Part shown: in pieces, positions 1,852 to 27,875 of the stretch
Numbering within the stretch: position 1 is the first letter of the stretch
Layout of the letters: every line of letters begins with the position of its first letter
Assembly (NCBI RefSeq): GCF_000427805.1
Contig: NZ_ATYS01000017.1
Location: 1 to 64,000 of the forward strand
Direction: 5' to 3'
From: Budvicia aquatica DSM 5075 = ATCC 35567
GTDB lineage: Bacteria; Pseudomonadota; Gammaproteobacteria; Enterobacterales; Enterobacteriaceae
DNA: 64,000 nucleotides
Program-made: the position numbers and the translations under genes
The notes under the pieces: model-generated
The model's database searches: none
Seen by the model: only the letters and a program-made list of their open reading frames with translations
What the model was told of the DNA's origin: nothing

Positions 1852-2733
1852 TTACGATTTATACTTCTCTAATAAAGCATCCAAAATCGCTAACGTCTCT
1901 GCATCAGCCTCACCCGAATAATTTGCCGGTCTGAAATGCATCTGAAAGGCCTTAATCACTGTTCGGGTTTGATTATCCATCACGCCACTGTCCGATACCT
2001 GATAACCATATCGATTGAGGTTATTCTGTAGCTGTTTGACATCGACGGCTGAGTGTAACTGACGCTTTGCCAAATACCGCTCAACCGTCGGAGAGTCAGG
2101 CCATGCTCCGATGCCAGCATCGGCCAGTTTCTTCCATGGAAATAACGGACCGGGATCAATTTTGCGTCCCGGAGAGATATCACTGTGTCCGACAACGTTA
2201 ATCGCCGCGATCTGATTGCGCTCAATAATATCGCGCGATAAGGCAATCACCAGCGCTATTTGGTTATCCGTAAAGGGCTGCCAATGGCTCACACCATTCA
2301 CCTTAGATGGGCCCTGATTAACAATTTCAACCCCAACGGAAGTATCATTCAAATTGATTCTTCCACGCCAAAAGCTGGCTCCTGCATGCCAGGCTCGCAT
2401 ATTTTCTGGCACCAACTGCAAAACAATAGCTTTACCTGACTGAATATCTGGGTCGGTATCAACTAAATAGTGAGCGCTGACGTTCTCGCCGGTAAGGATG
2501 TTCAACGATGAAGGGAAATCTTCTGCCGTATAATGAAAAACCAAAAACTGAATTCTTGGTTCTGCCCCCAGAGCACGGTGAGTATCATCAACCCAGTAAT
2601 CACCGCGGTCTTTAAGTGAATGACAACCAGAGATTAAAAACGCCAATACGGCCACAGCCAAAATATATATATACCGCCTGCCACTAAAGGGTAGACCAAA
2701 CTTAACCGCCCCTGACGTTGCCATCATATCCAT
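1852..2733 (-). CDS. amiD: N-acetylmuramoyl-L-alanine amidase AmiD (AmpD-fold lipoprotein with C-terminal peptidoglycan-binding domain)
   Basis: Lipobox LISGC. Amidase_2 motifs are present (HYTA, HAG, GHSD). The C-terminal PG-binding repeat is recognisable. The true start is probably one of the internal Met codons near the N-terminus. Confidence 0.75.
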   Translation of the reverse strand: MDMMATSGAVKFGLPFSGRRYIYILAVAVLAFLISGCHSLKDRGDYWVDDTHRALGAEPRIQFLVFHYTAEDFPSSLNILTGENVSAHYLVDTDPDIQSGKAIVLQLVPENMRAWHAGASFWRGRINLNDTSVGVEIVNQGPSKVNGVSHWQPFTDNQIALVIALSRDIIERNQIAAINVVGHSDISPGRKIDPGPLFPWKKLADAGIGAWPDSPTVERYLAKRQLHSAVDVKQLQNNLNRYGYQVSDSGVMDNQTRTVIKAFQMHFRPANYSGEADAETLAILDALLEKYKS

Positions 2734-3011
2734 GACTTAAATTACCTTGTGTTACTTTTATGCTGATCCTGTACTCATTATGCTCGAAAATGTCATATTT
2801 TGTTTCAAACAACGCTATTTTATTTGCCCTAAGCGATAAATACTCCCCCCTCAAAGGGCAATAAACAGACAGATTGAGCAAAAATTCATCGAACTGCTTT
2901 TTCGTCTGCGATAAATATCAAAAAATGTTCGATTGTCGCTGTCCAACAGCGAATAAACCTGATTTACTACTTCAAGCTTTGTAGCCATTAACCGTTTAAG
3001 AAAGGACTCTG

Positions 3012-3662
3012 ATGACGCTCTTTTTACAAAACTGCCTAGCATTTCCAACGATCATTTTCAGCGGACTACTGATTATAGTCTTACTGTATTGGATTTCTGC
3101 TGCCTTTGGCCTTCTCGATATTGATATTCTTAATATTGATGGCGTCGATATAAATACCGACGTTGACGGCTTTGATGCCCCCGGTGTGGCCGGATTACTC
3201 ATGAAGCTGGGGCTAGCCGGTATTCCGCTGACTATTATTATCACCCTGATAACCTTAACCGGCTGGTTTCTGACCTATTTCAGCACTCACCTAATTCTTC
3301 GCTTTATCGATACTGATATTATTCGTTATCTATTAGGAACTGCCGTATTTATTCTGGCTGGCTTTGTATCAGTTTTAGTGACCTCCATGATTCTAAAGCC
3401 CCTGCGTCCTAAATTAGCTAAGTTAAATCAAGCCAAAACGGTTAAGTCACTACTTGGCCAAATCGCTGAAGTCCGCTCTCCGATTGTTACTGAACAACGG
3501 GGAGAAGCTTTATTAGCCGATGGCGGTGCGGGTTTGATTCTTCAGGTCAGAGCATCTGAAGATGCCGGTATTGTTCGCGGAAATCGCATTGTTTTAATTG
3601 CCTACGACGCTGCAACTCACAGTTACACCGTTGTTAGTGAGGCTGAATTTAACCGACTTTAA
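3012..3662 (+). CDS. yqiJ: NfeD-like inner membrane protein (YqiJ/DUF1449 family), partner of flotillin
   Basis: Several N-terminal TM helices. The C-terminal soluble OB-fold-like segment (GEALLADGGAGLILQVRA...GNRIVLIAYD) is typical of short NfeD proteins encoded upstream of SPFH genes. Confidence 0.6.
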   Translation: MTLFLQNCLAFPTIIFSGLLIIVLLYWISAAFGLLDIDILNIDGVDINTDVDGFDAPGVAGLLMKLGLAGIPLTIIITLITLTGWFLTYFSTHLILRFIDTDIIRYLLGTAVFILAGFVSVLVTSMILKPLRPKLAKLNQAKTVKSLLGQIAEVRSPIVTEQRGEALLADGGAGLILQVRASEDAGIVRGNRIVLIAYDAATHSYTVVSEAEFNRL

Positions 3663-4021
3663 TTCATTTTTCCTTTCCCTGAATAATGGATAGGACTATC
3701 TATGGATGGTGGCTTAAGAATGAATCATGGAGGAGCTAAAATGTCCCAATTCCTTTCAAACAGCCGATGTCTGTCAGCTATCTGTTCGCGTTATACATTT
3801 GCCAAGCCCCGAATTTTCTTATATCGAACATTAACAAGAAAGCAGACCACACTTTTACAAGAAATTTTTCTATATTCGAACGTGAGTATCAGGTTTAGTT
3901 AGACACACGGTTATTAGTCATACTTTTGATCGGTAATATTATCGCATTAGCACACATTAGTTGATGATTACATAAGACTTAGCGGGACAGTAATATCCCT
4001 CAATTACACGGAGAAATACTT

Positions 4022-6262
4022 ATGTCTATGGCAGATTTAATGCCGTTCTTTACCATTGTTGGCGCGGTTATCGTGTTCATTTTGGGATTTTTTGGGTTAT
4101 TCAAAGCGTTCTATATCAAGGTGCCACAGGGAACTGCGCTGATTGTCAATGACATGTCATCTCAACCTAAAGTGCATTTTACCGGCGCACTGGTTTACCC
4201 GGTCATCTACAAAAAAGAGTTTATGCGTATCTCTTTGCTGACTCTGGAAGTTGACCGCCGGGGTAAAGATGGCCTGATCTGTAAGGATAACTTACGGGCA
4301 GATATTACCGTCGCTTTCTACCTGCGGGTTAATGAAACGACTGAAGACGTATTGAAAGTCGCGAAATCTATCGGCGTTGAGCGCGCTTCTGACCATCAGG
4401 CCGTCAGCGTATTATTCAGTGCAAAATTCTCCGAAGCGCTGAAAACCGTCGGTAAACAATTTGAGTTATCTAAGCTATTTGAAGATAGACAAAATTTCCG
4501 CGATCGCATTGTCGATGTGATTGGTAAAGATCTTAACGGCTACGCGCTGGAAGACGTTGCCATTGACTACTTAGAGCAAACGCCAAAAAGCTCGCTCGAT
4601 CCAAACAATATTTTTGATTCAGAAGGTATTCGTAAAATCACTGAAATTACAGCGATTCACAATATTGAAACCAATCAAAAAGAACGCGATCAAGAGCTGG
4701 CAATCAAGAAAAAGAACGTGGAAACACGTGAAGCCAGTCTGGCACTAGAACGCCAGCAGGCCGATGCCGAAGCCCGTCAGCAGCGTGAAATTGAAACAAT
4801 TCGCGCCCGTGAAGCGGCAGAAACGTTAAAAGTAAAAGAAGAAGAGCGCCTGAAAGCAGAACAGGCGCGAATTCAGACCCAACAAGAAATTGAAATCCGG
4901 GAAGAAAACCGCCAGCGTGAAGTTGAAGTCGCTCAGCAAAACCGTACTCGTGCAGTTTCTATTGAAATTGAAAAAGTAACCCGAGCCAGAGACCTTGAAA
5001 TAGTTTCGCGCGAGCGTGAAGTTGAACTTCAACGAATAGATAAAGAAAAAGCGCTGGAAGAAGAGCGTAAAAATATTGCTAACGTGGTACGTGAACGAGT
5101 CGCGGTCGAAAAAACCGTTGCTCAGGAAGAAGAACGTATTAAAGAAGTGCGTATGGTGTCTGAAGCCGACCGCCAGAAACAAGTCACGATTATCCAGGCG
5201 CAGGCCGATGCGGAACAAGACTTAGTCCGTCAGGTTAAACAAGCCGAAGCCGATGAGAACAGCGCTAAGCACAAAGCCTTAGAAATTAGCACCATGGCAC
5301 AGGCAGAGTTAGAAGCAGCCGCCAAGCAGGCCGAGTCGAAAAAACGCATGGCTGAAGGCGTTGAGGCTGAACAGGCCGCTCTGGGTCTGGCAGATGCGCG
5401 TGTACGTCAAGCACAGGCTGAAGCTGAAGAGAAAGAAGGTTTAGTTCAGGCTAACGTTACCGCTGAAAAACTGTTGGCAGAAGCCCGCGGTGAGCAAGAG
5501 AAAGGATTAGCCCGCGCCCGTATTCTGGAAGCTCAGGCAGCGGCAGAAGAGAAACAGGGCCTTGCCGAAGCCCGGGTTCTGGAAGAGAAGCTAACGGCTC
5601 AGGCCCGCGGTGACGAACAACAGGCACTGGCTAACGAAAAACAAGGCCTGGTTGATGCTCACGTATTAGAAGAAAAACTGGCGGCTCAGGCTCGAGGTGA
5701 AGGTCAGTTAGGTGCTGCGCAGGCGGAAGTTGTTCGTCAGCGTCTGAAAGCCGAAGCTGATGGCCTGACTGATAAGTTTACCGCTATGGGGAATCTTAAT
5801 ACCACAGCCCGCGAGCACGAAGAGTTCCGTATGCAACTGGAAAAACACTTCGAGCAAAGCATGGCCTCTATCTCTGCAAATAAAGAGATTGCCAGAGAAC
5901 AGGCAGACGTTCTGGCCGCCGCGCTCAGCAAAACGAATATCGACATTGTTGGCGGCGACGGTAGCTTCTTTAATACCTTCTCTAAAGCCCTTAGCGTCGG
6001 TAAAGCCATTAATGGCGTGGTAGAAAAGAGCCCGGTGGTACAGGATGTGGTACAGAAACTGATGGGAGCAGGTAAAGATGGCCAAAAACTGGATATCGAA
6101 GCCCTTTTACAGAATCCGGAAGTATTGGCGCTGATTCAGCAACTGACATCAGCACCGAAACCATCTGCACCACCGGCTTCGCCAGCGCTGCCACTCGCAG
6201 CACCGGTACCGCCAGCACCAGCACCAGCACCAGCACCAGCACCAAGCATGACTGAAGACTAA
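4022..6262 (+). CDS. yqiK: SPFH/band-7 flotillin-like protein (YqiK family) with extended coiled coil and C-terminal Pro-Ala repeat
   Basis: N-terminal TM segment followed by an SPFH domain. Long E/A/R/Q-rich coiled coil with internal AQARGE repeats. C-terminal (PA)n tail. At 746 aa it is longer than E. coli YqiK (553 aa). Confidence 0.8.
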   Translation: MSMADLMPFFTIVGAVIVFILGFFGLFKAFYIKVPQGTALIVNDMSSQPKVHFTGALVYPVIYKKEFMRISLLTLEVDRRGKDGLICKDNLRADITVAFYLRVNETTEDVLKVAKSIGVERASDHQAVSVLFSAKFSEALKTVGKQFELSKLFEDRQNFRDRIVDVIGKDLNGYALEDVAIDYLEQTPKSSLDPNNIFDSEGIRKITEITAIHNIETNQKERDQELAIKKKNVETREASLALERQQADAEARQQREIETIRAREAAETLKVKEEERLKAEQARIQTQQEIEIREENRQREVEVAQQNRTRAVSIEIEKVTRARDLEIVSREREVELQRIDKEKALEEERKNIANVVRERVAVEKTVAQEEERIKEVRMVSEADRQKQVTIIQAQADAEQDLVRQVKQAEADENSAKHKALEISTMAQAELEAAAKQAESKKRMAEGVEAEQAALGLADARVRQAQAEAEEKEGLVQANVTAEKLLAEARGEQEKGLARARILEAQAAAEEKQGLAEARVLEEKLTAQARGDEQQALANEKQGLVDAHVLEEKLAAQARGEGQLGAAQAEVVRQRLKAEADGLTDKFTAMGNLNTTAREHEEFRMQLEKHFEQSMASISANKEIAREQADVLAAALSKTNIDIVGGDGSFFNTFSKALSVGKAINGVVEKSPVVQDVVQKLMGAGKDGQKLDIEALLQNPEVLALIQQLTSAPKPSAPPASPALPLAAPVPPAPAPAPAPAPSMTED

Positions 6263-6270
6263 TATCCGGC

Positions 6271-6314
6271 GGGCCATCCGTGCAATTGCATTCGATGGCC
6301 CGTTTCTTTTTATT
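6271..6314 (+). terminator. Rho-independent terminator after yqiK-like gene
   Basis: Stem GGGCCATC...GATGGCCC followed by a TTTCTTTTTATTT run. Confidence 0.7.
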
Positions 6315-6452
6315 TAACACATTGTATTTACTAAGATAAGTTCACCCAGAAATAGTGCAGTATCAGGTCAACGGTAAATTTATCTTAGTTAATTTCTCTG
6401 AAAAATCATTATCAGAGTCAGCACGGCTAAAAAATATAATTTTATCAAGGAA

Positions 6453-9400
6453 ATGTTAAACGCCATGTCAGATAACCAAGACAATAATCGCGAACAGGAA
6501 TTACTGGATAACGCCGTTGCAGAAGGCGGTGCCTACGATATTTTACGTAAACGCTTATCTGAACAGGGCCAACAACTCCACGAAAAAGCGAAACAGCTAA
6601 ACGGTCGCCGTCTGGAAGAGTTCGGCAAAAGCCAGATGGACATCATTGGCCGTATCCGTATTCGTACTGAAAATAACTGCGTTGCGCGAGATATTGTCCG
6701 CGTCGGTGAGTGGCTGCTGTTTGGCTATAACGTTTTTATTGGCTTGAAAAAAGAGACGCGCATAGAAGATGTCTTCTCTCTTTATCGCCTGACTGAAAAT
6801 GAGGGCGAATACGACGTTGAACCCGTTGCTTTAACCGGCACCTTCCTGAACATCAACAGCTTTGTTCAGGACTTTAACGAGCTCTACACTTACTATAAGA
6901 ATACCCAGTTACTTCAACTTGTTGAACGTGAAGGAAAACTGCTGGCCAGTTTCCAAATCGGCGAGAGAATTACCGACGTCAGGGTTTTCCGCTGGTCAAT
7001 ATCAAGCGATAAAACTGAAATTAAATATATCGACAACCGCGGTGAACGGGATATCGCCCTGCCTCCGGCCTATGACTTTGAGTGGCATAAAACCACCCGT
7101 GAGAATGCGGTCAATGGCCGCTACTCTCATATGAATATTCTGGATACGGTATTCGTCGAAACGATTGGCGGTGACCTGACGATTAAGTGTGAAAACAACA
7201 CCGAAGACGGCTTGGGAATCTATCGGGAAGCGGTATTAGATAAAACCCAATCTCTGGATGATGCGCAGATTGAATATGCTCAGGCCGGCCCCCTGATTTT
7301 GCTAAAAATATTGCCTTATCGGGAAGAGTCCTGGCGCTATCTGGTTTATAACACCTTATCTCAAACAGCTATGCGTATTGATGCCATAGGGCTGGCCTGT
7401 ATTCAGCTACCGGAAGACCACGGCATTATCTTCCCGGGCGGTTACTATTTACAAAACGGCGAGTATAAGACCTTTGACCAGCCGATGGATGGCATGCGTT
7501 TTCGCCGAATTCGTCGTTCACCAAACGGTGAAGACGTATTATATATTTTCTATGAGCCTAACTTTGGCCGTTTAGCCCTGTTTAACTACAACATGATTGA
7601 ACGTAAGCTACACAATCCGTTGTTTGGCCATGGCTATGCCATGCTGGAAGATGGCCGAATGGTGCTGTTTGAAGGCCAATCGAATGAACCTACCCGTATT
7701 CATCCAATGCAGGTTTGGCAAACGCCCTACTACTCAGATGAATATGCCGCCCTTCAGCCGGCAAAAAATAGCTTTTTTGGCCGAATTGGTAATGCCGAAC
7801 TGGTTCGGGGAATTTCTGACCTCTACCACATCGCCAGAGAGATAGAGCAACAGCAAATATCATCTCAGCTTTATGAAAAACTCAGTCAGGATGCACGCCG
7901 ACTGATCGATATCTACTATTGGCTCAATGATGAGCAGAGCCTGCACGCATCCATCTTACTAAAAGAAATATCGCAAACCGGCGAACTGGTACTGGATGAA
8001 TACGAAAAAGTTGAGAGTATCCGCCGCCAGTCCGAACGGGCAATGAGTGAAGCAACATCTCGCCAAAAACAGCTAATTTTATCCTTATTACCGGACAGCT
8101 GGAGTAACGCTCAGCAGTTTGTTGACGCACTCAATGAGCTTAATGTCCACCGCGGGCAGCTCATCACCCTGCGGGATTATCGCTATATTGACTTAGACCG
8201 ACTCGATGAGATGGAACAACAGCTCACCGAGAGTCAACAAAGAATCTCACTCGCCACGGCTGACTTTTTGGCCAGCGATAAAGCCCTGCTGCCTTTTACT
8301 CAGCAGCTTCAGTCACTGGAAAAGCAGACTCAGGAAGCGACGAATAACGTCCAGCTTAACGAGCCCTTAGCCGGCATGGAAAAAATGTCTGCGGATTTAG
8401 ACATGCTTTCCAATCTGATGGCCTCATTGAAGTTCGAAGATACCATTCAACAAACTCATATTATTGAATCAATATCTGAGATCTATGCCAGATTAAATCA
8501 GGCCCGAGCCCGTTTACAACAGCGCCGCAAAGAGCAAGGTTCAGTAGAGTCTATTGCTCAATTCGGTGCTCAATTTAAGCTATTTAGTCAGGGGATTACT
8601 AACGCCTTAACGCTGGCCAGCGATCCTGAGCGTTGCGATGAGCAGCTTTCCCGTTTACTGGTTCAGTTAGAAGAGTTGGAAAGCCAGTTCAGCGAGCAGG
8701 AAGAGTTTTTAAACGATATTCTAAGTAAACGAGAAGAGTTACTTGAAACGTTTGAAAGCCATAAGCAATCCCTGCTGGATGAGCGCCAACGTAAATCACA
8801 AAATCTGACCGTTGCCGCTGACCGACTGCTCGACAGCCTTCAACGCAGAACCGCTCGATTTAACACCCTTGATGAGCTCAATGCCTTTTTCGCCTCTGAC
8901 CCGCTATCGATTAAAACTCGTGAAATTATTGAACGACTGCGCGGGCTAAAAGACAGCGTCAAAGCCGATGATATTGATGCCAAATTTAAAGCCGCCCGGG
9001 ATCAGGCTATCCGCAGCTTAAGGGATAAATCCGAAATATATGAAGACGGTGGCAACGTCATTAAGCTCGGCCCTCGCCATAGGTTTAGCGTTAATACACA
9101 GGAACTGGATCTCACTATTTTACCTCGCGGGGAACAGCTTTATTTGCATTTAACCGGTACCGATTATCAGGAACCCATTGAAAGTGATGAGCTGGAAACG
9201 CTAAAAGAGTATTGGCAGATCTCGATTGAATCTGAATCACCTGAAGTCTACCGGGGTGAATATCTCGCCTACTCTCTGATTTATGCCGCCAGTAAAGAGC
9301 AAGATGGTCTCACTCTGGACAAACTGATCTCCCTACTCCATGAGCCGGAAGCGCTGGAAAAAACCGTTCGTGATTTTGCCTCACCTCGTTATAAAGAGGG

Positions 9401-11402
9401 ATATGAGAAAGGCATTCACGATCACGATGCCGTTGCCATTCTACAAAAATTAATTCCCGTTGGTGAAAGCGCAGACTTACTGCGTTTTAATCCTTTAGCC
9501 AGAAGCATTGCCGTATTGTTCTGGCAGCATATCCAGAAAGAACCGCTGCCTTCCCTCTGGCCCGAGCGTGCCCGGACCAGCATGAATATTTATCAGCTAT
9601 TTCGTAGCGATGCCGGGCTACAGGATTTACAGGCTGAAATCGAAGCAGACCTAAGCCTGTTTTTGTCTCAGTTCCCCATCGCCTGTCAGCCCTATCAGCA
9701 GGCTCAGGCGGCAGAGTATCTCAGTCTGGCGCTGGGCTGTTCGCCAATTGAATTCAGCTTTAGTAAGTATGCTCGTACCCTGTTCGATAGCCTACAAACT
9801 CAGTTAGAAAAAGCCCATATGTGGGGCGACTTTAATCGTTCTCAACAAAATTTAGGCGATCGTCTGGCACAGCGCTGGCTGCTGGTAGAAAACTGGTTAA
9901 CCGGTATGTGTTCACTTCCTGAGTTTTCAGCGCTGGCAACTTATATACCCGAAGCCGTTGCACTGACACTATTAGATAATCGTGTTGCTGCGCGCTTCAG
10001 CGAAGTAGATTTACACTTTACGGTCACTCAGCTAATGGGTGAACATCCGCGAATTCAGGACAGAGCATTAACCCTGAGCCTGGATGATTATTTTGGCCGT
10101 ATGCGCAAACACCGGAAAGTGTTTATTCCAGCCTACCACCGATATCAGGAACTCAGACAAAACGTTTTAAATCAGCAGCGCAAGAACCTTCGTCTGCATG
10201 AATTTAAGGCCCGCCCGCTAAGTTCTTTCGTGCGTAATAAACTGATTAACGACGTATACCTGCCGATTATCGGTGACAACATGGCTAAACAGATTGGTGC
10301 TCTGGGTGAAGGAAAACGAACCGACCTGATGGGCCTGCTGCTAATGATTTCACCACCGGGGTACGGAAAGACCACCCTGATGGAATATATTGCTAACCGC
10401 CTGGGTCTGATTTTTATGAAAATTAATGGCCCGGCTTTAGGCCATGACGTTCTTTCATTAGATCCTGAACAGGCACCCAATGCTACCGCCCGGCAAGAGC
10501 TGGAGAAGCTGAATCTGGCGTTAGAAATGGGAAATAACGTGATGTTGTATGTGGATGATATCCAGCATACTAACCCTGAGTTCCTACAGAAATTTATTTC
10601 ACTGTGTGACGGTACCCGCCGCATTGAAGGGGTATGGAAAGGCAAAACAAAAACCTACGATATGCGCGGTAAAAAATTCTGCGTTGTCATGGCCGGTAAC
10701 CCTTATACCGAATCCGGTGACGTATTCCGCATTCCTGATATGTTAGCCAACCGAGCCGATATCTATAACTTAGGTGAAGTTCTGGGCGGCATGGAGGAAG
10801 CCTTTGCGCTGAGCTACATTGAAAATAGCCTGACCTCTAACCCGGTCTTAGCGCCGCTAGCCCTACGGGATATGAATGACCTTTATCAGTTTGTCGATAA
10901 AGCAATGGGTAAACCTTTCTCAAATAATAACTTAAGCTATAACTATAGCGACGCAGAAATCAATGAAATCGTTGCCGTGATTGAACGCATTATCATCATG
11001 CGTGATACCGTGCTGAAAGTGAACCAACAGTACATTGCCAGCGCGGCTCAGTCCGACAAGTACCGCACGGAGCCAAGCTTTAAGCTACAGGGTAGCTATC
11101 GCAATATGAATAAGCTCAGTGAGAAAATATCTTCCGTGATGAACCCGGCCGAAGTCCGGCGAATTCTCGACGATCACTACTTAGGTGAAGCCCAACTGCT
11201 AACTCACGGTGCAGAGGAAAACTTACTTAAATTAGCTGAAATTCGCGACTTGATGTCGCCAACTGAAGAAACTCGCTGGCAGCAAATAAAGCATGACTTT
11301 ATGCGCAATAAGGCACTCGGCGGTGATAATGCCGAGGTCGGAGATCGGGTGGTTGCGCAGCTTGCTGATTTAGTTGAAAGCGTTCAGGCCTTGGGTAAAT
11401 AA
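6453..11402 (+). CDS. Giant (1649 aa) soluble coiled-coil protein with C-terminal AAA+ (MoxR/AAA_5-like) ATPase domain; function unknown
   Basis: Uninterrupted 4.9 kb ORF. Walker A is PPGYGKTTL and Walker B is VMLYVDDIQ. Sensor-1-like VVMAGNP and an Arg-rich segment lie in the last ~350 aa. Long Q/E/L-rich predicted coiled-coil stretches occupy the middle. No TM segments. The start may instead be the ATG at 6465 (MSDNQ...). Confidence 0.75.
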   Translation: MLNAMSDNQDNNREQELLDNAVAEGGAYDILRKRLSEQGQQLHEKAKQLNGRRLEEFGKSQMDIIGRIRIRTENNCVARDIVRVGEWLLFGYNVFIGLKKETRIEDVFSLYRLTENEGEYDVEPVALTGTFLNINSFVQDFNELYTYYKNTQLLQLVEREGKLLASFQIGERITDVRVFRWSISSDKTEIKYIDNRGERDIALPPAYDFEWHKTTRENAVNGRYSHMNILDTVFVETIGGDLTIKCENNTEDGLGIYREAVLDKTQSLDDAQIEYAQAGPLILLKILPYREESWRYLVYNTLSQTAMRIDAIGLACIQLPEDHGIIFPGGYYLQNGEYKTFDQPMDGMRFRRIRRSPNGEDVLYIFYEPNFGRLALFNYNMIERKLHNPLFGHGYAMLEDGRMVLFEGQSNEPTRIHPMQVWQTPYYSDEYAALQPAKNSFFGRIGNAELVRGISDLYHIAREIEQQQISSQLYEKLSQDARRLIDIYYWLNDEQSLHASILLKEISQTGELVLDEYEKVESIRRQSERAMSEATSRQKQLILSLLPDSWSNAQQFVDALNELNVHRGQLITLRDYRYIDLDRLDEMEQQLTESQQRISLATADFLASDKALLPFTQQLQSLEKQTQEATNNVQLNEPLAGMEKMSADLDMLSNLMASLKFEDTIQQTHIIESISEIYARLNQARARLQQRRKEQGSVESIAQFGAQFKLFSQGITNALTLASDPERCDEQLSRLLVQLEELESQFSEQEEFLNDILSKREELLETFESHKQSLLDERQRKSQNLTVAADRLLDSLQRRTARFNTLDELNAFFASDPLSIKTREIIERLRGLKDSVKADDIDAKFKAARDQAIRSLRDKSEIYEDGGNVIKLGPRHRFSVNTQELDLTILPRGEQLYLHLTGTDYQEPIESDELETLKEYWQISIESESPEVYRGEYLAYSLIYAASKEQDGLTLDKLISLLHEPEALEKTVRDFASPRYKEGYEKGIHDHDAVAILQKLIPVGESADLLRFNPLARSIAVLFWQHIQKEPLPSLWPERARTSMNIYQLFRSDAGLQDLQAEIEADLSLFLSQFPIACQPYQQAQAAEYLSLALGCSPIEFSFSKYARTLFDSLQTQLEKAHMWGDFNRSQQNLGDRLAQRWLLVENWLTGMCSLPEFSALATYIPEAVALTLLDNRVAARFSEVDLHFTVTQLMGEHPRIQDRALTLSLDDYFGRMRKHRKVFIPAYHRYQELRQNVLNQQRKNLRLHEFKARPLSSFVRNKLINDVYLPIIGDNMAKQIGALGEGKRTDLMGLLLMISPPGYGKTTLMEYIANRLGLIFMKINGPALGHDVLSLDPEQAPNATARQELEKLNLALEMGNNVMLYVDDIQHTNPEFLQKFISLCDGTRRIEGVWKGKTKTYDMRGKKFCVVMAGNPYTESGDVFRIPDMLANRADIYNLGEVLGGMEEAFALSYIENSLTSNPVLAPLALRDMNDLYQFVDKAMGKPFSNNNLSYNYSDAEINEIVAVIERIIIMRDTVLKVNQQYIASAAQSDKYRTEPSFKLQGSYRNMNKLSEKISSVMNPAEVRRILDDHYLGEAQLLTHGAEENLLKLAEIRDLMSPTEETRWQQIKHDFMRNKALGGDNAEVGDRVVAQLADLVESVQALGK

Positions 11403-11407
11403 CCTTA

Positions 11408-11974
11408 ATGAAAGCGTGGATAAAACAACGAGTCTGGATTCTAAGCATACTGACTACCGTGCTAATTATTATACAGTGTATAAATTCAGTTACCGGTGAT
11501 GCTTTAAATAATTTCGGCATACTTCCCCGAACCACTCGGGGACTGGTCGGTATATTATGCGCCCCTTGGCTGCACAGTAACTGGGAGCATTTATTCAGTA
11601 ACTTACCAATATTACTGATCTTAAGTGCGTTATTAATTAGCCAGTCTGTCCGCGATTATATTAAGTCTAGTATTTTTATTATTCTATTCAGCGGCCTTTT
11701 GGTTTGGATTTTTGCCCGTACCGCCATTCATATTGGCGCCAGCGGATGGATTTTCGGACTATGGGCTCTACTACTAGCCAGAGCATTTACCCAGCGTAGC
11801 CTGCTGGATTTTATCTTTGCCGCAGTGGTCTTCATCTATTACGGTGGCATAACATCAGGAATGATACCGGGAACACCCGGTATCTCTTTTGAAGCGCATA
11901 TTGCAGGTGTTATCGCCGGCTTAAGTTATGCTCTGCTAACTCGGAAAAAGCCCCGGATAGAAGTAAGTCCGTAG
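11408..11974 (+). CDS. Rhomboid-family intramembrane serine protease (short 6-TM form)
   Basis: Six hydrophobic helices. Motifs present: HxxxN (HLFSN), GxSG (GASG) and AHxxG (AHIAG). The start codon lies 5 nt after the stop of the giant ATPase gene. Confidence 0.6.
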   Translation: MKAWIKQRVWILSILTTVLIIIQCINSVTGDALNNFGILPRTTRGLVGILCAPWLHSNWEHLFSNLPILLILSALLISQSVRDYIKSSIFIILFSGLLVWIFARTAIHIGASGWIFGLWALLLARAFTQRSLLDFIFAAVVFIYYGGITSGMIPGTPGISFEAHIAGVIAGLSYALLTRKKPRIEVSP

Positions 11975-12255
11975 CGCGGCTAATACGTTTCAAATTTATT
12001 TTATTTAAATGCAAAAGAGTATTTTTTCGAATTAAAACCTATTAATTCCAATAAATGCCGTCATAAAGACTGGATGATATATTACAGCCCTATTTTTAGT
12101 ATTAAATGCTTTATTTTGGCTTGCGATTAAAGCAAACTACCTTAAAAGAGACGGGTATAACGTTAACAAGATATTAACGATGGAAATACTCTGTTCCAGA
12201 TCAAAGAATATATATCGCTGACTTCTGATTATTTGAATTTTGATATTTTTATTTT

Positions 12256-12954
12256 ATGGATAACGTGGATATGGATAATGCTGCACTGGAAGATTATCTA
12301 AAAACAACGCTTGCTGATTTATCATTAAGTCAGTCTGAACGTAATCAACTTCGTGAGCTAGGGCAAACATTAAATCTGGAACAGTCCAGCTTTATGCGTA
12401 ATCGCGCATTTGATTTAGTGAGAGCTCAATTAACATCAGCCCCTGAGGACCTCCAGCCAACATTAAAATGGCTGGAGCTTGTGATCAAAACTCTCGATAT
12501 CAGCAGCATCCAACCCAAAATTAATTCCGCCGCCTATTTCTCCCCGGGTGAAGCCTGCCGGGAGAAAATTCGTTCAATGCTGGCTCAGAGCCGTCAGAAA
12601 GCAGACATCTGTGTTTTCACCATCGCAGATGATGTGCTTACAGAAGCGATTCTAAATGCCCACCAACGAAACGTTCAAATAAGAATAATTACTGATAACG
12701 ATAAATCAGAAGACAGCGGTAGCGATATTGAATATCTGCAAAATAAAGGTATCGCCATCGCGATGGATAATAGCCCATATCATATGCACCATAAGTTCGC
12801 GCTTTTCGATAATAGTTTTCTGCTCAACGGCAGTTTTAACTGGACGCGGAGCGCTTCTCAGCAAAATCAAGAGAACGTGTTAGTAACTGACGATATAACA
12901 TTACTCACCGCCTACCAAAAAGAATTTAATAAACTATGGACGCAGTTTAACTAA
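12256..12954 (+). CDS. Phospholipase D-family (single HKD, Nuc-like) nuclease/phosphodiesterase, cytoplasmic
   Basis: Canonical HxKx4Dx6GSxN motif (HHKFALFDNSFLLNGSFNWTRSA). No signal peptide. The gene is low-GC relative to its neighbours and has an AT-rich upstream region. Confidence 0.7.
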   Translation: MDNVDMDNAALEDYLKTTLADLSLSQSERNQLRELGQTLNLEQSSFMRNRAFDLVRAQLTSAPEDLQPTLKWLELVIKTLDISSIQPKINSAAYFSPGEACREKIRSMLAQSRQKADICVFTIADDVLTEAILNAHQRNVQIRIITDNDKSEDSGSDIEYLQNKGIAIAMDNSPYHMHHKFALFDNSFLLNGSFNWTRSASQQNQENVLVTDDITLLTAYQKEFNKLWTQFN

Positions 12955-13147
12955 TGGAAAATTTCATATTAATGCTGGCTATGGAGGTAAAAAAATCGAA
13001 GACTGCATTTAAGTTTACCGCTAAAGAAAAGGTAGATATACTCCCCGCACAAGGAAGTTTCACTCTACGCAAAGATTGCATAAAGTTCCCTCATTTCGTC
13101 GCGCCCTCTATGCAATTCCGTTACTTTCTCTACAAAACAGAATAAAT

Positions 13148-14518
13148 ATGAATAATAAAATAAAACGAATAACTCTTTGTTTTAGTATTGCGCTAACGTT
13201 GGCGGCCTGTTCTAACCCGCCTTCACGCAAAAACTATGATTATGCACTTTCGCAAGGACAGATTGAACTCGCTCAAAAAATAGCATTAGAAGAAGGCGTC
13301 GCACCGGGTACTGATACCGCGACTGAACTTCTTTGGTCTCTTGAAGCGGGTGCCGTATTACGTATGGCAGATCAGGTAGATCGCTCAACCAAAGTTCTTG
13401 ATGGCAGTGAGTTATTGATTAAAGACAACGAAACGCAAAATCTGGCGTCCTCTGGGCTTAGTCAAGCTGCATCAATGATTGTTAATGATAACGTGATGAG
13501 CTACACCCCGCGTGTATACGATCGGGTTATGGTTAACACTTATAAAGCATTAAACTTCTGGCAACAGGCTAACTTTAGCGATGCTCGCGTAGAATGGAAC
13601 CGGGTTGACGATCGTCAACGTCGTGCTGCGGAATATTTCTCTAAAGAAATTAATGCTCAAAAATCAGAAGTTAAAAGTAATAAAATCGGCGACAGTTACT
13701 CTCAGTCAATGGAAGCCCTTGAAGGATCAGGTATTGATGTATCTAAATGGGCACCTTATGATGGTTACATTAACCCGGCATCCCTGTATTTGCATGGCCT
13801 GTACTTCTTAATTAACAGCGAAAGTGCGGCTGATTACACCAAAGCAAAAGAGAGTCTAAAACGCGCTTACGCACTGACTCGCAGCAACCAAATTCGTGCT
13901 GATATTGCACTCGCTAATAAAGGCCGTACCGTTGCTCCCGGCGTTTGGGTTATTTTTGAGAATGGTCTGGCAGCCAGAAAAACTGAACGGCGTATTGATT
14001 TACCTCTGATTCTGGTTACAAAAAGCGTGGCCTATACCGGTATGGCTTTGCCCGTTCTGGAATCAGGTAGCCCGGCTTACCCTTACCTTTCGGTAAATGG
14101 CTCTCAAAAAACCGAGTCGTTTGCCAGTATGGATAAGATCATTGAGGGTGAGTTTAAGACTGAGTTTACCGGCATTTTGATCAAAGAGATCTCTCGGGCC
14201 ATCTTAAAAACCGCGGCTCAGGCGACGATGATGAATTCGGATAACAGCACGGTTAAGCTTATCGGCGCATTAACCGGTATTGCACAAGCCGTCAGTACAC
14301 AGGCTGATATTCGTAGCTGGCATGCTTTACCTTATGATTTCCAGGTTGCTTACGTTAAGTGGCCGAAAAGCGGACAAATTCAAATTAGTCCACCTGGAGG
14401 CGAAGCAATTAACGTTGATTTACCCGCAACGCCTCAACCCGTTGTCGTTTATGTGCGAGTGCTGAACGCTGGTTCTGCTCCACAAGTTAGCGTACTAACC
14501 AGTAAAAATGCGATGTAA
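13148..14518 (+). CDS. Predicted envelope lipoprotein (456 aa), function unknown
   Basis: Lipobox LTLAAC after a short basic N-terminus. The start was reassigned to the internal ATG at 13148; the ORF-track start lies further upstream. Confidence 0.55.
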   Translation: MNNKIKRITLCFSIALTLAACSNPPSRKNYDYALSQGQIELAQKIALEEGVAPGTDTATELLWSLEAGAVLRMADQVDRSTKVLDGSELLIKDNETQNLASSGLSQAASMIVNDNVMSYTPRVYDRVMVNTYKALNFWQQANFSDARVEWNRVDDRQRRAAEYFSKEINAQKSEVKSNKIGDSYSQSMEALEGSGIDVSKWAPYDGYINPASLYLHGLYFLINSESAADYTKAKESLKRAYALTRSNQIRADIALANKGRTVAPGVWVIFENGLAARKTERRIDLPLILVTKSVAYTGMALPVLESGSPAYPYLSVNGSQKTESFASMDKIIEGEFKTEFTGILIKEISRAILKTAAQATMMNSDNSTVKLIGALTGIAQAVSTQADIRSWHALPYDFQVAYVKWPKSGQIQISPPGGEAINVDLPATPQPVVVYVRVLNAGSAPQVSVLTSKNAM

Positions 14519-14575
14519 TGGACTATATCCAAAACGCATCGTGCTGAACTTTTAAACTGTATTGAGAGCTTTATA

Positions 14576-15190
14576 ATGAATATTTTTAATAGAAAAACAT
14601 TTCTTGCCGCTGCAGTAGCGCTGTCTTTAGCTGGCTGTGCACAGGAAGGTGCTTATTACGTAGATAGTTCTTCTGATAATGTTGCCGTTATGGGCCTGGA
14701 CTATAAAGACTTCGAAATGGCTGCTTCTAGCATGGTTGAAGATATGCTGAGCTCAGACTTACTGGTTCACCCACAGGGCGGCCGTTATGTTTTAACCGTT
14801 ACCGGCATCGTCAATGATACTGACCAACGTATCGATACCGACCAGTTAACTAAAAAAATCCGTACCAGCCTGTTAAATTCCGGTCGTTTTGTTGTGACTA
14901 CCGCAATTAGTGCCAACGGCCCGGAAGACGAGATGACGCGTAAAGTTCGTCAATTGCGTAACTCTAAAATGGTTAACCAAAAAACAGTTAAGAAAGATGG
15001 CCGCGTAATTGCCCCAGACTTCTCATTAACGGGTAAAATCATTCAGCAAAACCAACGTGTGAATTCAAAAACACAGCAAGTTGAATACTATTTCCAGTTA
15101 ACGTTAACCAATTTGGATGACGGTTTAGCCTATTGGGAAAAAGAGTATCCAATCATCAAGCGTGGCGACAATCGCACTGCAAGTTGGTAA
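14576..15190 (+). CDS. Predicted lipoprotein (204 aa), LpoB-like/TolB-N-like fold suggested
   Basis: Lipobox LSLAGC. The V/T-rich beta pattern (YVLTVTGIVNDTD...RFVVTT) resembles LpoB/CsgG-like modules. Confidence 0.5.
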   Translation: MNIFNRKTFLAAAVALSLAGCAQEGAYYVDSSSDNVAVMGLDYKDFEMAASSMVEDMLSSDLLVHPQGGRYVLTVTGIVNDTDQRIDTDQLTKKIRTSLLNSGRFVVTTAISANGPEDEMTRKVRQLRNSKMVNQKTVKKDGRVIAPDFSLTGKIIQQNQRVNSKTQQVEYYFQLTLTNLDDGLAYWEKEYPIIKRGDNRTASW

Positions 15191-15268
15191 GGTCGGCGTT
15201 GCACCGTATGCCTGTTTAATCAACATACGGTGCGATTTATATTATTTTTACCCATTAGGGCTTTCTTA

Positions 15269-16639
15269 ATGAAAAAATGGATATTGGTACTAGTAGGTCT
15301 TTTGGCAGTTTCACCTGCAGTGTATGCAAAAATTGAAACTGTTGATGCTCAGGGATATGGCGAGACCTACGAAAAAGCGGTTGATGCTGCTTTGGCTGAT
15401 GCCGTTCGTCAGGTTAACGGAATGACCGTAAGTACTCAGTCAGAACGCGCTGGTGATTATGTTCGGGTTAAAGACAAATCTGATGCCACAATTGAAGGAA
15501 AAGGCACCTACGTTCAAGATACTAAGAACAAAGATGACTCTTTTCTAGGCAACAAAGGTGTAGACAGTACGCTGACCGAGAATTTAGATGTGAATGTTGG
15601 TGGTAACGCTAACCGTGACTTAACCGTAAACACCGGTAAAAGTGCACAAATTAACACTCGCAGCTCCGGTACGGTAAAGGGTTATAAAGTTAAATCCCGT
15701 GACTGTGACCCAAAAGGATGTACCGTTCTCCTGAGCGTTGATATTGATAAAGTTGAGCGTAAAACCTCTCAGGCTAATTCTAAACGCGATCGCCTGGCGG
15801 TCATTACTACCGGTAACCGCAGTCGTTCAGCCTTTGCTAATCAGCTCCGCCAAGAAATCACTGACCGTATCGTTCAGTCGCAGCGTTTCACCGTATTAGA
15901 CCGCAGCACAACCAACGATAAAGCCTTCGAACAGGAAGAAGCCTTCTTGGAAGGTCGCCTGAATAATTCGGTTGATATCAAGCAAGCTGCCCTTCCGGCT
16001 GATTACCTATTGGTTATCAACGTGACGGAAGCGGGTGTTAATACTAAGACTAAAGTGACCAGCGTTGACTTAACCGGTGAATTTGACGTAACCCGCACCA
16101 GCAAAACTAAAGTGACCGTGCGTTATTCCCTGCTTGAAGCGGCCACTCACGGCATTCAATGGTCTGACTCTAGTGTATTTGAGCAAGGTGGCCGTTATTT
16201 AGAAACCGCCCGCCAACAAATCAGCGACGTTATTGCCGATAAAATTGTCAACAAACTGACTCCGGCGAAAGTCGTCAGCGTTTCTAACGGTCAAGTCATT
16301 ATTAACCGTGGTGAAGCAATGACCTACTTAGGCGACCGTTTTGATATTTATTCTCAAGGCGAGGAGCTGATAGACCCTGATACGGGTGAAACCTTAGGCG
16401 CAACAGAAGAAAAAGTAGCGACTATTGCTATCGATAGTGTTAAAGACAAAATCTCTTATGGCATTGTTGAAAGCGGAAAAATTGAGTCTATCGAAAAAGG
16501 CGCAATTGCCCGACTGGCTCCACCTCTGCCGGTAGAGAAAAAAGCGACCGATAAAAAGGTGACTAAGACCAAAACAACGCCAAAACCTAAAGCTGATGCA
16601 CAGAAGCTGGGTGATTCTGGCGGCGTTTTCCTTAAATAG
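15269..16639 (+). CDS. Secreted periplasmic/outer-membrane-associated protein with C-terminal CsgG-like domain
   Basis: Sec signal MKKWILVLVGLLAVSPAVYA. The central region has a CsgG/LPP20-like pattern (RLAVITTGN...RFTVLDRS...ADYLLVINVTEAG). K/T-rich C-terminal tail. Start taken at the internal ATG at 15269. Confidence 0.5.
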   Translation: MKKWILVLVGLLAVSPAVYAKIETVDAQGYGETYEKAVDAALADAVRQVNGMTVSTQSERAGDYVRVKDKSDATIEGKGTYVQDTKNKDDSFLGNKGVDSTLTENLDVNVGGNANRDLTVNTGKSAQINTRSSGTVKGYKVKSRDCDPKGCTVLLSVDIDKVERKTSQANSKRDRLAVITTGNRSRSAFANQLRQEITDRIVQSQRFTVLDRSTTNDKAFEQEEAFLEGRLNNSVDIKQAALPADYLLVINVTEAGVNTKTKVTSVDLTGEFDVTRTSKTKVTVRYSLLEAATHGIQWSDSSVFEQGGRYLETARQQISDVIADKIVNKLTPAKVVSVSNGQVIINRGEAMTYLGDRFDIYSQGEELIDPDTGETLGATEEKVATIAIDSVKDKISYGIVESGKIESIEKGAIARLAPPLPVEKKATDKKVTKTKTTPKPKADAQKLGDSGGVFLK

Positions 16640-19525: not shown

Positions 19526-19601
19526 TCCTCTGTAGTTCAGTCGGTAGAACGGCGGACTGTTAATCCGTATGTCACTGGTTCGAGTCCAGTCAGAGGAGCC
19601 A
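19526..19601 (+). tRNA. asn tRNA: tRNA-Asn (anticodon GTT)
   Basis: 76 nt, identical in sequence to enterobacterial tRNA-Asn (TCCTCTGTAGTTCAGTCGGTAGAACGGCGGACTGTTAATCCG...GGAGCCA). Encoded CCA. Confidence 0.95.
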
Positions 19602-19818: not shown

Positions 19819-22368
19819 TCAATATATTGGCATATCCCATTCTTCTAACGGAATCGGGCGCCCAAAGTAATAACCCTGTGCCCTCAGGCAGCCCAACTTA
19901 AACAGTTTCTGCGCCATTTCTTGTGTTTCGATACCTTCGGCTATCAATGGTACCGATAAGCCGTCAGCTAACCGGATAACGGCTGAAATGATAGCTTCAC
20001 TCTTAGCGCTATTCAGCACGCTGCTGACAAAATCACGGTCGATCTTCAAACAGTCGAAATTCAGGTTATGCAGGTATGAAAGGCTCGAAAAACCAGAACC
20101 AAAATCATCAATTGCAATCGAGATACCGAAAGCGCGAATCCGCGTTAATTGATCCTTAATCACTGGATTGCTTTCCATAATCAGCGATTCGGTAATTTCT
20201 AAGGTGAGGTTTTTAGGCGATAGATTAAACTCATCCAAAACAGTCGTAATATAGCCATAGAAGTCAGGCTGCATCAGTTGCCGCACGGATACGTTGATGT
20301 GAAGTTCAAAGTCCGCCGGCCAGCCGGCTTTTATTTTTTCTGACAGTTGACGACACGACTCATGCAAAACCCACCGCCCAATCGATAAAATCAAACCGGA
20401 CTCCTCAGCCAGCGGGATAAATATATAAGGGGCCACCATGCCATATACTTTGCTGTTCCAACGTATCAACGCTTCAGCCCCAATCACTGAGCTATCTTCA
20501 AGTTTGACTATCGGTTGAAAATAGACCAGAAACTCATTGTTGGTCATCGCCTGGTTTAAATTAGTCAGCATACGGGTGTTATTCACGGCTATAGTCATCA
20601 TATCCGGGTGATAGACTTCATAGGCACCGCTGCCTTTTTTTCTCGCCGCAGCCAGTGCAACAGAGGCATTACGCAGATTATCATTCAGCGCTTTATCATC
20701 GAACTCACCGTTAACAAAACCAATATTCCCAACAAATAGCAAATGCTCGCCTTCATCACTACTTAAGCTAGAAAAGATATCGATATATTTCTTAATTTCT
20801 AGCGAACAAATCTTATGCTCAAAGCTATAGGGATAACAAATCGCAAACTCAGAATCATTGATTCGGGCAAGAAGCGCATTGACGGGTACCGTTTCCAAAA
20901 GGCGTTTAACAAACTCACGCAGGAGTGATTCCCCTTGTTTATATCCAAGAGTGTTATTGATTTCATTTACGTTATCTAAGCTTATCAATATCAATCCTTT
21001 CCAGAGATTCTGTTCTTCCTGAGTTGCTAATTCACGCATTCTTTCCATTAAGCCTTCTTTACTCAATAACCCGGTTATTGAGTCGTAGTAGACCTGACGT
21101 TTTAAACTGGAGAAGGCCTTAGAAAGGGTTAAGGACATATCATTGAAGGCATCATTTAGCAGTTTGATCTCCTTAAGTTCAAACCGGGTCTCTTTTGCCG
21201 GTACCCACTTGAGCTTGGCAATAAGCCTCGCCTGTTTAGCAACCTCTAAAATCGGGGCCGTTATTTTAGCTAACGTGATCCATGCCAGGGTGACGCCAAT
21301 GATAAAAATAAGCACCACTGAAAAGATGGTAATTATCCGGTCTTTATTGAATATACCGACCAAATCATTTTGCGGGACAATAACGGCCATACGCCAGTTT
21401 TGCAGGCCAAGTTCTTCCCCCACGGGAACAACACGTACATAAAAAATTTCATCATCAACATCAAAGGTAATTTTAGTGATATTACGATCGGCCAGATAAG
21501 GGGCAATACTGCGTATAATTTTGCTGTCACTGTCTGCCGGAGACATTAATCGCGCATTTTCCAAACTGGCCAAACCCTGAGATGTCGCCAACACCTCTTT
21601 TTCTACCGTTGAATGGGAAATAATTTTATTATCGCCATTTACAATAAAAATAACCCCGTGACCTAAATTAGGTATCTCTCTGAGATAGTGATTGAATTTC
21701 TCCAGCTTAATGTCGCTGGAGACTACGCCAACGTAACGCTTATTCACATCATAAATCGGGCTATTGTATGAAATGCTAATCCCTTTGAGATCGTCTATAT
21801 CTTGGTAGGCAACGCTCCAGGATGAGAGCTTATTTTTATCTGCGTCACGATACCAAGAGCGCATACGGGGGTCATAATGATGAATTGCATTACGTACCGG
21901 ACTCTCCATTGATATTCCGGAATAAAAATTCAACACGCCGTCCGTTCTGGAATCTTTCAAAATAAGCATAAAGCTGTCTGCCTGAGCCCCTCTGCTTACA
22001 CCGATATAATCCCCATTGGTCGAACCGAAAGCGACAAGGCTTAATTGAGGGGAATACGGAAATATTCGCCGCAATGTTCTTCTTAGCGGAGACTCAAACT
22101 CCTGCAGGTCTTCCAGATCGTCGGTTAAAATCTCGCGCATGGCCATTTCAACGGCGGCGTTAGACTGAACAGGGACTTTAAGAAAGTTAAATAAGTTATT
22201 CTGAACGGTTTCGATCTGGGCTGAGGTTATTTTTTCACCCAGTCCGTTAAATATCAGGTTTTCATTTCGCAGTTGTAAAAAGATGGCCGAACCAAACATG
22301 ATGGTCAAAATAAAAACAAAAAGCGATGTCACTACCAGCTTTAAAGATACTGTATTTAGTACTCGCAC
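19819..22368 (-). CDS. Membrane sensor GGDEF-EAL protein (periplasmic dCache-like domain, HAMP, degenerate GGDEF, intact EAL); probable c-di-GMP phosphodiesterase
   Basis: Two TM helices flank a ~300 aa periplasmic region. The GGDEF signature position reads NDSEF, which is degenerate. EAL motifs are intact (EALIRW, DDFGSGFSSL, KIDRDFV, EGIETQE). Confidence 0.85.
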   Translation of the reverse strand: MRVLNTVSLKLVVTSLFVFILTIMFGSAIFLQLRNENLIFNGLGEKITSAQIETVQNNLFNFLKVPVQSNAAVEMAMREILTDDLEDLQEFESPLRRTLRRIFPYSPQLSLVAFGSTNGDYIGVSRGAQADSFMLILKDSRTDGVLNFYSGISMESPVRNAIHHYDPRMRSWYRDADKNKLSSWSVAYQDIDDLKGISISYNSPIYDVNKRYVGVVSSDIKLEKFNHYLREIPNLGHGVIFIVNGDNKIISHSTVEKEVLATSQGLASLENARLMSPADSDSKIIRSIAPYLADRNITKITFDVDDEIFYVRVVPVGEELGLQNWRMAVIVPQNDLVGIFNKDRIITIFSVVLIFIIGVTLAWITLAKITAPILEVAKQARLIAKLKWVPAKETRFELKEIKLLNDAFNDMSLTLSKAFSSLKRQVYYDSITGLLSKEGLMERMRELATQEEQNLWKGLILISLDNVNEINNTLGYKQGESLLREFVKRLLETVPVNALLARINDSEFAICYPYSFEHKICSLEIKKYIDIFSSLSSDEGEHLLFVGNIGFVNGEFDDKALNDNLRNASVALAAARKKGSGAYEVYHPDMMTIAVNNTRMLTNLNQAMTNNEFLVYFQPIVKLEDSSVIGAEALIRWNSKVYGMVAPYIFIPLAEESGLILSIGRWVLHESCRQLSEKIKAGWPADFELHINVSVRQLMQPDFYGYITTVLDEFNLSPKNLTLEITESLIMESNPVIKDQLTRIRAFGISIAIDDFGSGFSSLSYLHNLNFDCLKIDRDFVSSVLNSAKSEAIISAVIRLADGLSVPLIAEGIETQEMAQKLFKLGCLRAQGYYFGRPIPLEEWDMPIY

Positions 22369-22809: not shown

Positions 22810-22885
22810 TCCTCTGTAGTTCAGTCGGTAGAACGGCGGACTGTTAATCCGTATGTCACTGGTTCAAGTCCAGTCAGAGGAGCCA
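22810..22885 (+). tRNA. asn tRNA: tRNA-Asn (anticodon GTT), second copy with one T-loop substitution
   Basis: Identical to copy 1 except a G-to-A change in the T-loop (TTCAAGT versus TTCGAGT). Confidence 0.93.
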
Positions 22886-27859: not shown

Positions 27860-27875
27860 AGCAAGGAGCATGCCA
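27860..27875 (-). promoter_or_regulatory. Sigma54 (-24/-12) promoter, TGGCATGCTCCTTGCT on the minus strand, driving the cyuA-like operon
   Basis: GG and GC elements are spaced exactly as in the TGGCACG-N4-TTGCW consensus. The site lies about 35 nt upstream of the cyuA-like ATG, and an AAGGA RBS follows. Confidence 0.6.

Follow-up and report, generated by a model that had tools for sequence, protein, structure and literature searches.

A predicted DUF3686-DUF7902-AAA+ ATPase of Budvicia aquatica, from a family almost always linked to a YqiK-type flotillin, is a candidate remodeller of membrane scaffolds

Among described systems, the bac cluster of Pseudomonas aeruginosa is closest to the locus of the large ATPase gene analysed here, which lies in the first 64,000 nucleotides (nt) of contig NZ_ATYS01000017.1 of Budvicia aquatica DSM 5075 = ATCC 35567 (this whole stretch is called the window). 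PA3729-PA3732 were defined as a biofilm-associated cluster by Macé et al. (PMC2587700). Co-transcription of bacABCDEF was demonstrated by reverse transcription PCR, PA14_16190 being named BacE and the phospholipase D (PLD)-family protein BacF (Wallart et al. 2024, PMC10948618), and all Bac proteins, including PA14_16190/BacE, were increased 6-13-fold in a ΔbacA mutant (PMC10948618). Induction of PA3728-PA3732 could be observed upon phage infection (PMC12041424) and in the proteome of an argA suppressor (PMC13637947), and PA3728 is among the recurrently mutated genes of cystic fibrosis isolates (PMC8190622). The operon type was described computationally by Ravi et al. 2024 (PMC11237479), where a rhomboid is not mentioned, and a 2025 review states that bacteria appear to lack a Vps4-like ATPase for PspA (PMC7619361).

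Comparison with bacABCDEF revealed the same YqiJ-like protein with three transmembrane (TM) segments (BacC), the flotillin-like protein (BacD), the Pfam architecture of the ATPase (BacE) and the HKD/PLD hydrolase (BacF). Three differences from the P. aeruginosa cluster were evident. DUF2170 (BacA) and PspA (BacB) are not found directly upstream in the window, and no σ54 promoter, as proposed for P. aeruginosa bacA, was detected in the region upstream of the operon (2700-4022). A rhomboid gene is present between the ATPase and PLD genes, and the ATPase is approximately 100 residues shorter than BacE at its C-terminus. Of the operon class of Ravi et al., the window carries the form that these authors call abbreviated, which has the flotillin, the YqiJ-like protein and the ATPase but no PspA; the PLD gene is present in addition. 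The yqiJ-yqiK pair of Escherichia coli shares a homologous flotillin, preceded in both cases by a gene for a 3-TM protein with a C-terminal β domain; unlike the window, the yqiJK locus of E. coli K-12 has no adjoining ATPase gene. A megablast search (high-identity DNA) over complete E. coli genomes gave no close copy of the ATPase gene.

The sequence of the ATPase places it in the DUF3686-DUF7902-AAA+ family as the predicted orthologue of PA3728/BacE. The original prediction had regarded only the last ~350 residues as recognisable; however, the Pfam search revealed DUF3686 (PF12458) over residues 42-489 (nt 6576-7919; E=1.6e-202, 673 bits, profile positions 2-448 of 448) and DUF7902 (PF25472) over residues 610-694 (nt 8280-8534; E=2.6e-26), residue numbers here and below following the open reading frame (ORF) from ATG 6453. 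Thus, the N-terminal DUF3686, the central DUF7902 and a single C-terminal AAA+ module carrying SPPGYGKT, DDIQH, GNP and NR(A)D are all present, and the AAA/AAA_5 matches exceed their Pfam cut-offs. The P. aeruginosa homologue P0090 (1746 aa) is colinear, with 67% identity over 100% of the query length. Its locus reads DUF2170, PspA, a 213-aa TM protein, a 688-aa flotillin-like protein, the ATPase, PLDc_2, YaeQ, RecJ and an M4 peptidase. From the PAO1 gene order, we take this locus to be PA3732 to PA3724, and P0090 to be PA3728. More than 6000 database proteins match the ATPase, a search of cluster representatives yielded 1382 clusters at 50% identity, and homologues of about 1600-1900 aa could be followed down to ~26-30% identity. 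A hit to a known family with an assigned function had been foreseen as a challenge to the prediction, and half of it materialised: membership of the DUF3686/DUF7902-AAA (BacE) family is clear, while a family with a tested function was not obtained.

Both the NCBI product name and the Pfam description of DUF3686 read 'DNA repair ATPase', a label that is unsupported. According to these names the protein would act on DNA together with a PLD-family nuclease; the adjoining HKD protein is NucT-like and recJ is located nearby in P. aeruginosa. Domain and family searches of the ATPase detected no DNA-related domain, and repair ATPases of the SMC/RecN/Rad50, RuvB or RecA type were rejected on finding no homology past the P-loop and no DNA-binding domain. 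In the library of papers searched, nothing was found on DUF3686, on PF12458 or on 'DNA repair ATPase' together with flotillin. We consider a role in DNA repair very improbable.

The conservation of the neighbourhood was assessed in 113 loci (26 from genomes, 8 obtained by looking up exact protein matches and 80 from metagenomes), in which neighbours were scored by tblastn using several divergent queries per neighbour family. These loci are phylogenetically non-independent and all fractions are descriptive only. Among the 95 loci whose upstream sequence reaches 2.5 kb or more, 91 (~96%) have a flotillin-like gene directly upstream of the ATPase gene in the same orientation, and a YqiJ-like gene was found upstream in 85/88. 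The flotillin linkage holds even where the ATPase has fallen to 30-35% identity (loci L033 and L035). In its genetic context the ATPase is the near-obligate partner of both a YqiK-type flotillin and a YqiJ-like protein. Other neighbours were less frequent: PspA (28/78) and DUF2170 (25/78) upstream, and a rhomboid (29/96, ~30%) and a PLD-family gene (16/91, ~18%) downstream of the ATPase gene. The loci with a rhomboid include Pseudomonas-like and more distant contigs, with L036, L037, L042, L047, L092 and L099 lying outside Enterobacterales. The facultative occurrence of the rhomboid and PLD genes speaks against either of them defining the core function.

Some of the surveyed loci had features of their own. 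The most distant full-length homologue examined (P0256, loci L029/L030; ~26-30% identity) has a PRiA4_ORF3 protein upstream and an HflX-like GTPase downstream. In Xenorhabdus lircayensis (L026) the ATPase match begins only with residue 487 and there is no flotillin gene, and in X. szentirmaii (L021) the match is distributed over separate high-scoring segment pairs; either may represent a pseudogene or a rearrangement.

The ATPase ORF is real and intact. An uninterrupted ORF of 1649 codons extends over 6453-11402 on the + strand and is the largest of the window, the runner-up encoding 849 aa. The length of 1649 residues originally given for the protein holds for the ORF and not for the protein, which is 1645 aa long when counted from the conserved ATG 6465 (Met5). 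The latter was determined to be the true start because ATG 6453 is not conserved, reading ACG in Limnobaculum and Pragia, and because the homologues begin with MSD... and are 1645 aa long; an AAGGA Shine-Dalgarno sequence at 6447-6451 serves ATG 6465. A frameshift or assembly artefact, which had been named as a possible refutation, is excluded by the full-length homologues described above, thousands of which have the same architecture. The antisense ORF of 157 aa had been regarded as spurious, and this was borne out since 1-6 stop codons interrupt it in 26/26 related loci and no Pfam match could be found. The protein was also correctly called soluble, with no transmembrane segment detected (maximum KD19 1.23).

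The region preceding the AAA+ module was examined using two AlphaFold2 models built from 99-sequence alignments, covering residues 5-1000 (predicted local distance difference test, pLDDT, 84.3) and 701-1649 (pLDDT 87.9; predicted template modelling score, pTM, 0.71). The first ~1250 residues, described originally as helical and coiled-coil-rich, are not uniformly so. In the confident model, residues ~63-423 consist of 51% β-strand and 10% helix, the strands occurring mostly in fours, and further small β elements are located at ~869-909 and ~1180-1209, the latter sharing the segment ~1180-1246 with a long helix. The following helical region (residues ~429-862, 85% helix) was modelled as 14 helices of 10-51 residues each. 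Hence no long coiled-coil arm is present: the N-terminal third is β-rich, propeller-like and defined by Pfam, and the remainder is multi-domain. A mechanochemical or scaffold ATPase, rather than a metabolic enzyme, had been proposed from an arm-plus-head architecture; the class remains reasonable, while the architecture on which it was based does not.

Conservation peaks over the AAA core, and the very large non-ATPase part is also strongly conserved. Foldseek analysis of the N-terminal 1000 residues gave weak matches to the propeller-plus-solenoid proteins clathrin heavy chain, IFT-A, a nuclear pore complex chain and Elp1. Both observations, and a Walker B motif that is invariantly D-D and not D-E, would fit a protein that serves mainly as a static scaffold beneath the membrane or as part of a coat, formed by the propeller-like domain and the helical repeats, with the AAA+ module as a nucleotide-gated switch of oligomerisation and not a motor. 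This explanation is considered unlikely.

The ATPase motifs of the original prediction were all found in the C-terminal module: Walker A SPPGYGKTT (residues 1300-1308, nt 10350-10376; K1306/T1307), Walker B MLYVDDIQH (residues 1364-1372, nt 10542-10568; D1368-D1369) and sensor-1 VVMAGNP (residues 1411-1417, nt 10683-10703; N1416). Their invariance was judged in an alignment of 36 sequences (30-53% identity) and in one of 12 sequences which included the most distant homologues. Across both, SPPGYGKT (K1306), hhhhDD-IQH (D1368, D1369), GNP (N1416) and R1434 in IPDMLANRAD were invariant. Inspection of Walker B revealed that the catalytic Glu is replaced by the invariant Asp of D1368-D1369. The search for an arginine finger yielded the invariant R1434 (nt 10731-10760), which the model places where α4 ends, immediately ahead of β5; from this position, the canonical one of box VII, R1434 is a candidate arginine finger. 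A β-hairpin modelled at about 1389-1406, ahead of the sensor-1 strand, corresponds to the pre-sensor-1 hairpin. The β2-α2 segment carries a conserved 18-residue loop (1326-1343) with an invariant SLDP, modelled without a helix-2-insert hairpin. This SLDP loop occupies the classical AAA pore-loop site, and no aromatic pore-loop residue was found in the ATPase. The invariant Asp-Asp would suggest slow or partner-triggered hydrolysis, more in the manner of a switch than of a fast unfoldase.

Comparison with other ATPases supported the MoxR-like class originally assigned to the C-terminal module, as the AAA+ core is nearest to MoxR (AAA_5) proteins by structure and sequence and has the pre-sensor-1 β-hairpin. 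It differs from MoxR in its Walker B, which is DD instead of the DE of the hhhhDE pattern, and probably in the helix-2 insert, which is modelled as a loop. The MoxR-class ATPases (CbbQ, NorQ, RavA) and the AAA modules of dynein and midasin are among its closest known counterparts, but the ATPase is five times the size of a MoxR protein; MoxR proteins are stand-alone proteins of ~300-350 aa with a VWA partner, whereas the ATPase has 1645 aa and no VWA domain was found among its neighbours, either in the window or in the tabulated genes of related loci. Around the P-loop the sequence is similar to classical AAA proteins, and searches against PDB sequences with the whole protein and with an AAA-module profile gave P-loop-level matches only. 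Nevertheless, the combination of a two-arginine second region of homology, aromatic pore loop 1 and no hairpin that marks the classical clade (Vps4, p97, FtsH, NSF) was not found. A classical-clade AAA unfoldase was thus rejected, and the absence of the aromatic pore loop speaks against an unfoldase of the classical threading type. The likeness to Vps4 acting on ESCRT-III, to NSF and to p97 is a functional analogy only: here too an AAA+ protein is linked, in this case genetically, to a polymer-forming membrane scaffold, the counterparts being PspA, the bacterial ESCRT-III, and the SPFH assemblies of flotillin.

From gene neighbourhood and fold class only, we propose with moderate confidence that the ATPase, a MoxR/dynein-class AAA+ protein with putative docking arms, would use ATP to remodel or regulate flotillin/PspA membrane scaffolds. 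AAA+ modules of the MoxR/dynein class generally oligomerise into rings, and the C-terminal module would do the same. The propeller-like domain and the helical repeats would dock on the flotillin/YqiJ assembly from its cytoplasmic side and, where PspA is encoded, on PspA as well. By binding and hydrolysing ATP, the ATPase would drive or gate the assembly, disassembly or turnover of the scaffolds during envelope stress.

Several observations weigh against this proposal. In the library of papers searched, no report was found of a biochemical function, a physical interaction, any activity as an ATPase, an oligomeric state or a phenotype of mutants for the protein or its homologues. The Walker B Asp in place of Glu and the missing aromatic pore-loop residue, described above, belong here as well. 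PspA is not encoded in the operon of the window. A check for flotillin-free orthologues revealed at least three loci, L029, L054 and L112, which have no flotillin neighbour despite ample upstream sequence, and the rearranged L026 is also without an adjacent flotillin. Finally, a hairpin with a U-tract is located in the gap between the flotillin and ATPase genes (-24.2 kcal/mol, z = -4.67), overlooked by the consensus terminator scan since the inner stem lies within its loop. The amounts of flotillin and ATPase therefore need not be equal; the hairpin suggests attenuated read-through, with flotillin in excess over the ATPase.

Upstream in the window, the neighbour was confirmed as a flotillin, since BLASTP aligned 444 aa with E. 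coli YqiK at 30% identity (E=7e-50); Pfam returned nothing for it even at E=10, and the PDB sequence search returned nothing useful. It is arranged as an N-terminal TM segment, an SPFH domain, a long E/A/Q-rich coiled coil and a Pro/Ala tail. A docking-motif search demonstrated that the C-terminal tails are variable except for an LLxNPEVQ segment and an acidic end. The 216-aa YqiJ-like protein received moderate support from hhalign against E. coli YqiJ (probability 82%, E=1e-5), while BLASTP against YqiJ and a PDB profile search gave no match. The spacer between these two genes (3663-4021, 360 nt) contains no convincing ORF and is ~200 nt long in Limnobaculum (L001).

Downstream, the rhomboid begins 5 nt past the ATPase stop codon, near enough for translational coupling, and has an intact catalytic Ser and His. 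Together with the recurrence of the rhomboid after the ATPase gene, also on contigs outside Enterobacterales, this would fit a membrane proteolytic or quality-control hub, in which the ATPase would recognise membrane or membrane-associated clients within the flotillin microdomain and extract them or present them to the rhomboid or another protease. NfeD-family partners of SPFH proteins include proteases, which also counts for such a hub, and an analogue is the mitochondrial complex of SLP2 (SPFH), PARL (rhomboid) and YME1L (AAA+), reportedly described by Wai et al. in 2016. However, ~70% of the loci have no nearby rhomboid, and the hub therefore cannot be the core function; moreover, rhomboids require no ATP and the ATPase has no aromatic pore loop. 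As an account of the ATPase, the hub is considered unlikely.

The PLD gene follows after an AT-rich gap of 280 nt (11975-12255), and its product has an N-terminal extension of ~90 residues, the best models being NucT, DpdK and DrmC. Its resemblance to the HKD domains of NucT, DrmC, DpdK and MkoC, and the phage induction of PA3728-PA3732 (PMC12041424), could be explained by an anti-phage or abortive-infection module, with the ATPase as a membrane-located sensor of infection that would switch on the HKD/PLD nuclease. The ATPase, flotillin and YqiJ-like protein match no PADLOC family; the PADLOC-DB scan of the ATPase gave only a P-loop-level match to mad8 (E=3e-4) with no stretch passing alone, and a BrxC-type or other PADLOC defence ATPase was rejected on this basis. 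The PLD gene is also present in just 16/91 loci, the 67% identity between Pseudomonas and Enterobacterales is unusual for a defence gene, Psp-type genes respond to many envelope stresses, and the locus belongs to the syntenic core chromosome in Budviciaceae. Such a defence role is quite unlikely. The coordinates of the ATPase, its domains and its neighbours are given in Table 1.

Table 1. Position of the ATPase gene, its domains and the neighbouring features in the window
Feature	Coordinates	Strand	Remarks
216-aa YqiJ/NfeD-like protein	3012..3662	+	PA3730/BacC counterpart; three TM, acidic loop, C-terminal β domain
746-aa flotillin, YqiK homologue	4022..6262	+	PA3729/BacD counterpart; BLASTP vs YqiK
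Hairpin + U-tract, terminator or attenuator	6268..6304	+	-24.2 kcal/mol, z = -4.67; flotillin-ATPase gap
ATPase gene, DUF3686-DUF7902-AAA+	6465..11402	+	1645 aa; mechanical ORF from 6453; predicted orthologue of PA3728/BacE
N-terminal helical hairpin	6477..6623	+	Residues ~9-57; AlphaFold model
β-rich, propeller-like domain	6639..7721	+	Residues ~63-423; core of DUF3686
Helical repeat region with DUF7902	7737..9038	+	Residues ~429-862
Small conserved β domain	9057..9179	+	Residues ~869-909; invariant G873, F878
All-α domain	9252..9971	+	Residues ~934-1173; pLDDT mostly >92
Antisense 157-aa ORF	10172..10645	-	Spurious
AAA+ α/β core	10239..10787	+	Residues ~1263-1445; motifs + model
AAA+ lid + C-terminal helical extension	10794..11399	+	Residues ~1448-1649; invariant LQGSYRNMNK at 1545-1554
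188-aa rhomboid intramembrane serine protease	11408..11974	+	GASGW Ser + AHIAG His intact
232-aa soluble single-HKD PLD-family hydrolase	12256..12954	+	PA3727/BacF counterpart; NucT-like

The genes on either side, among them SDR, an AmpD-like amidase and LpoB, are shared in synteny with Limnobaculum, Pragia and Leminorella, and the window therefore represents core chromosome in Budviciaceae. Within 13076-16639 (+), LpoB (14576-15190) lies between two proteins without a Pfam match (480 aa and 469 aa), the 480-aa neighbour giving a weak lipoprotein-signal match, and this trio is syntenic in the same three genera. Elsewhere in the window, two tRNA-Asn(GTT) genes (19526-19601 and 22810-22885) flank a Cache-GGDEF-EAL gene (19819-22368, -), and the GC content falls to ~0.31 at 18.0-19.5 kb. 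A σ54-like site with one mismatch to the consensus (TGGCATGCTCCTTGCT; 27860-27875, -) was found just upstream of an SDH_alpha / M20 peptidase / DUF5058 run on the - strand, with a σ54 activator gene nearby (29130-30563, +); an ordinary catabolic operon under σ54 control is the probable reading.

In bacteria, flotillins and the polymers of PspA/Vipp1 form dynamic scaffolds at membranes, and no energy-consuming factor is known to control them. The ATPase family is a credible candidate for powering them. That an ATPase acts on flotillin/PspA dynamics is an idea already found in the literature, and the gene of the window is an ordinary orthologue; its value lies in the corrected annotation and in the recurrent rhomboid linkage, the sole point that goes past orthology. 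At its broadest, the family may be a dedicated class of bacterial ATPases remodelling SPFH/flotillin and PspA polymers, filling the niche of Vps4 with a MoxR/dynein-class ring that bears propeller and helical-repeat arms, and coupled to a rhomboid in about one third of lineages, including that of the window, as an SPFH-rhomboid-AAA+ hub like SLP2-PARL-YME1L; this wider view is put forward tentatively. The family is strongly conserved and is found in pathogens (P. aeruginosa, Proteus, Providencia and Morganella). If the proposed remodelling of scaffolds is true, the family would provide an experimental handle on how membrane microdomain scaffolds are assembled and dismantled under envelope stress.

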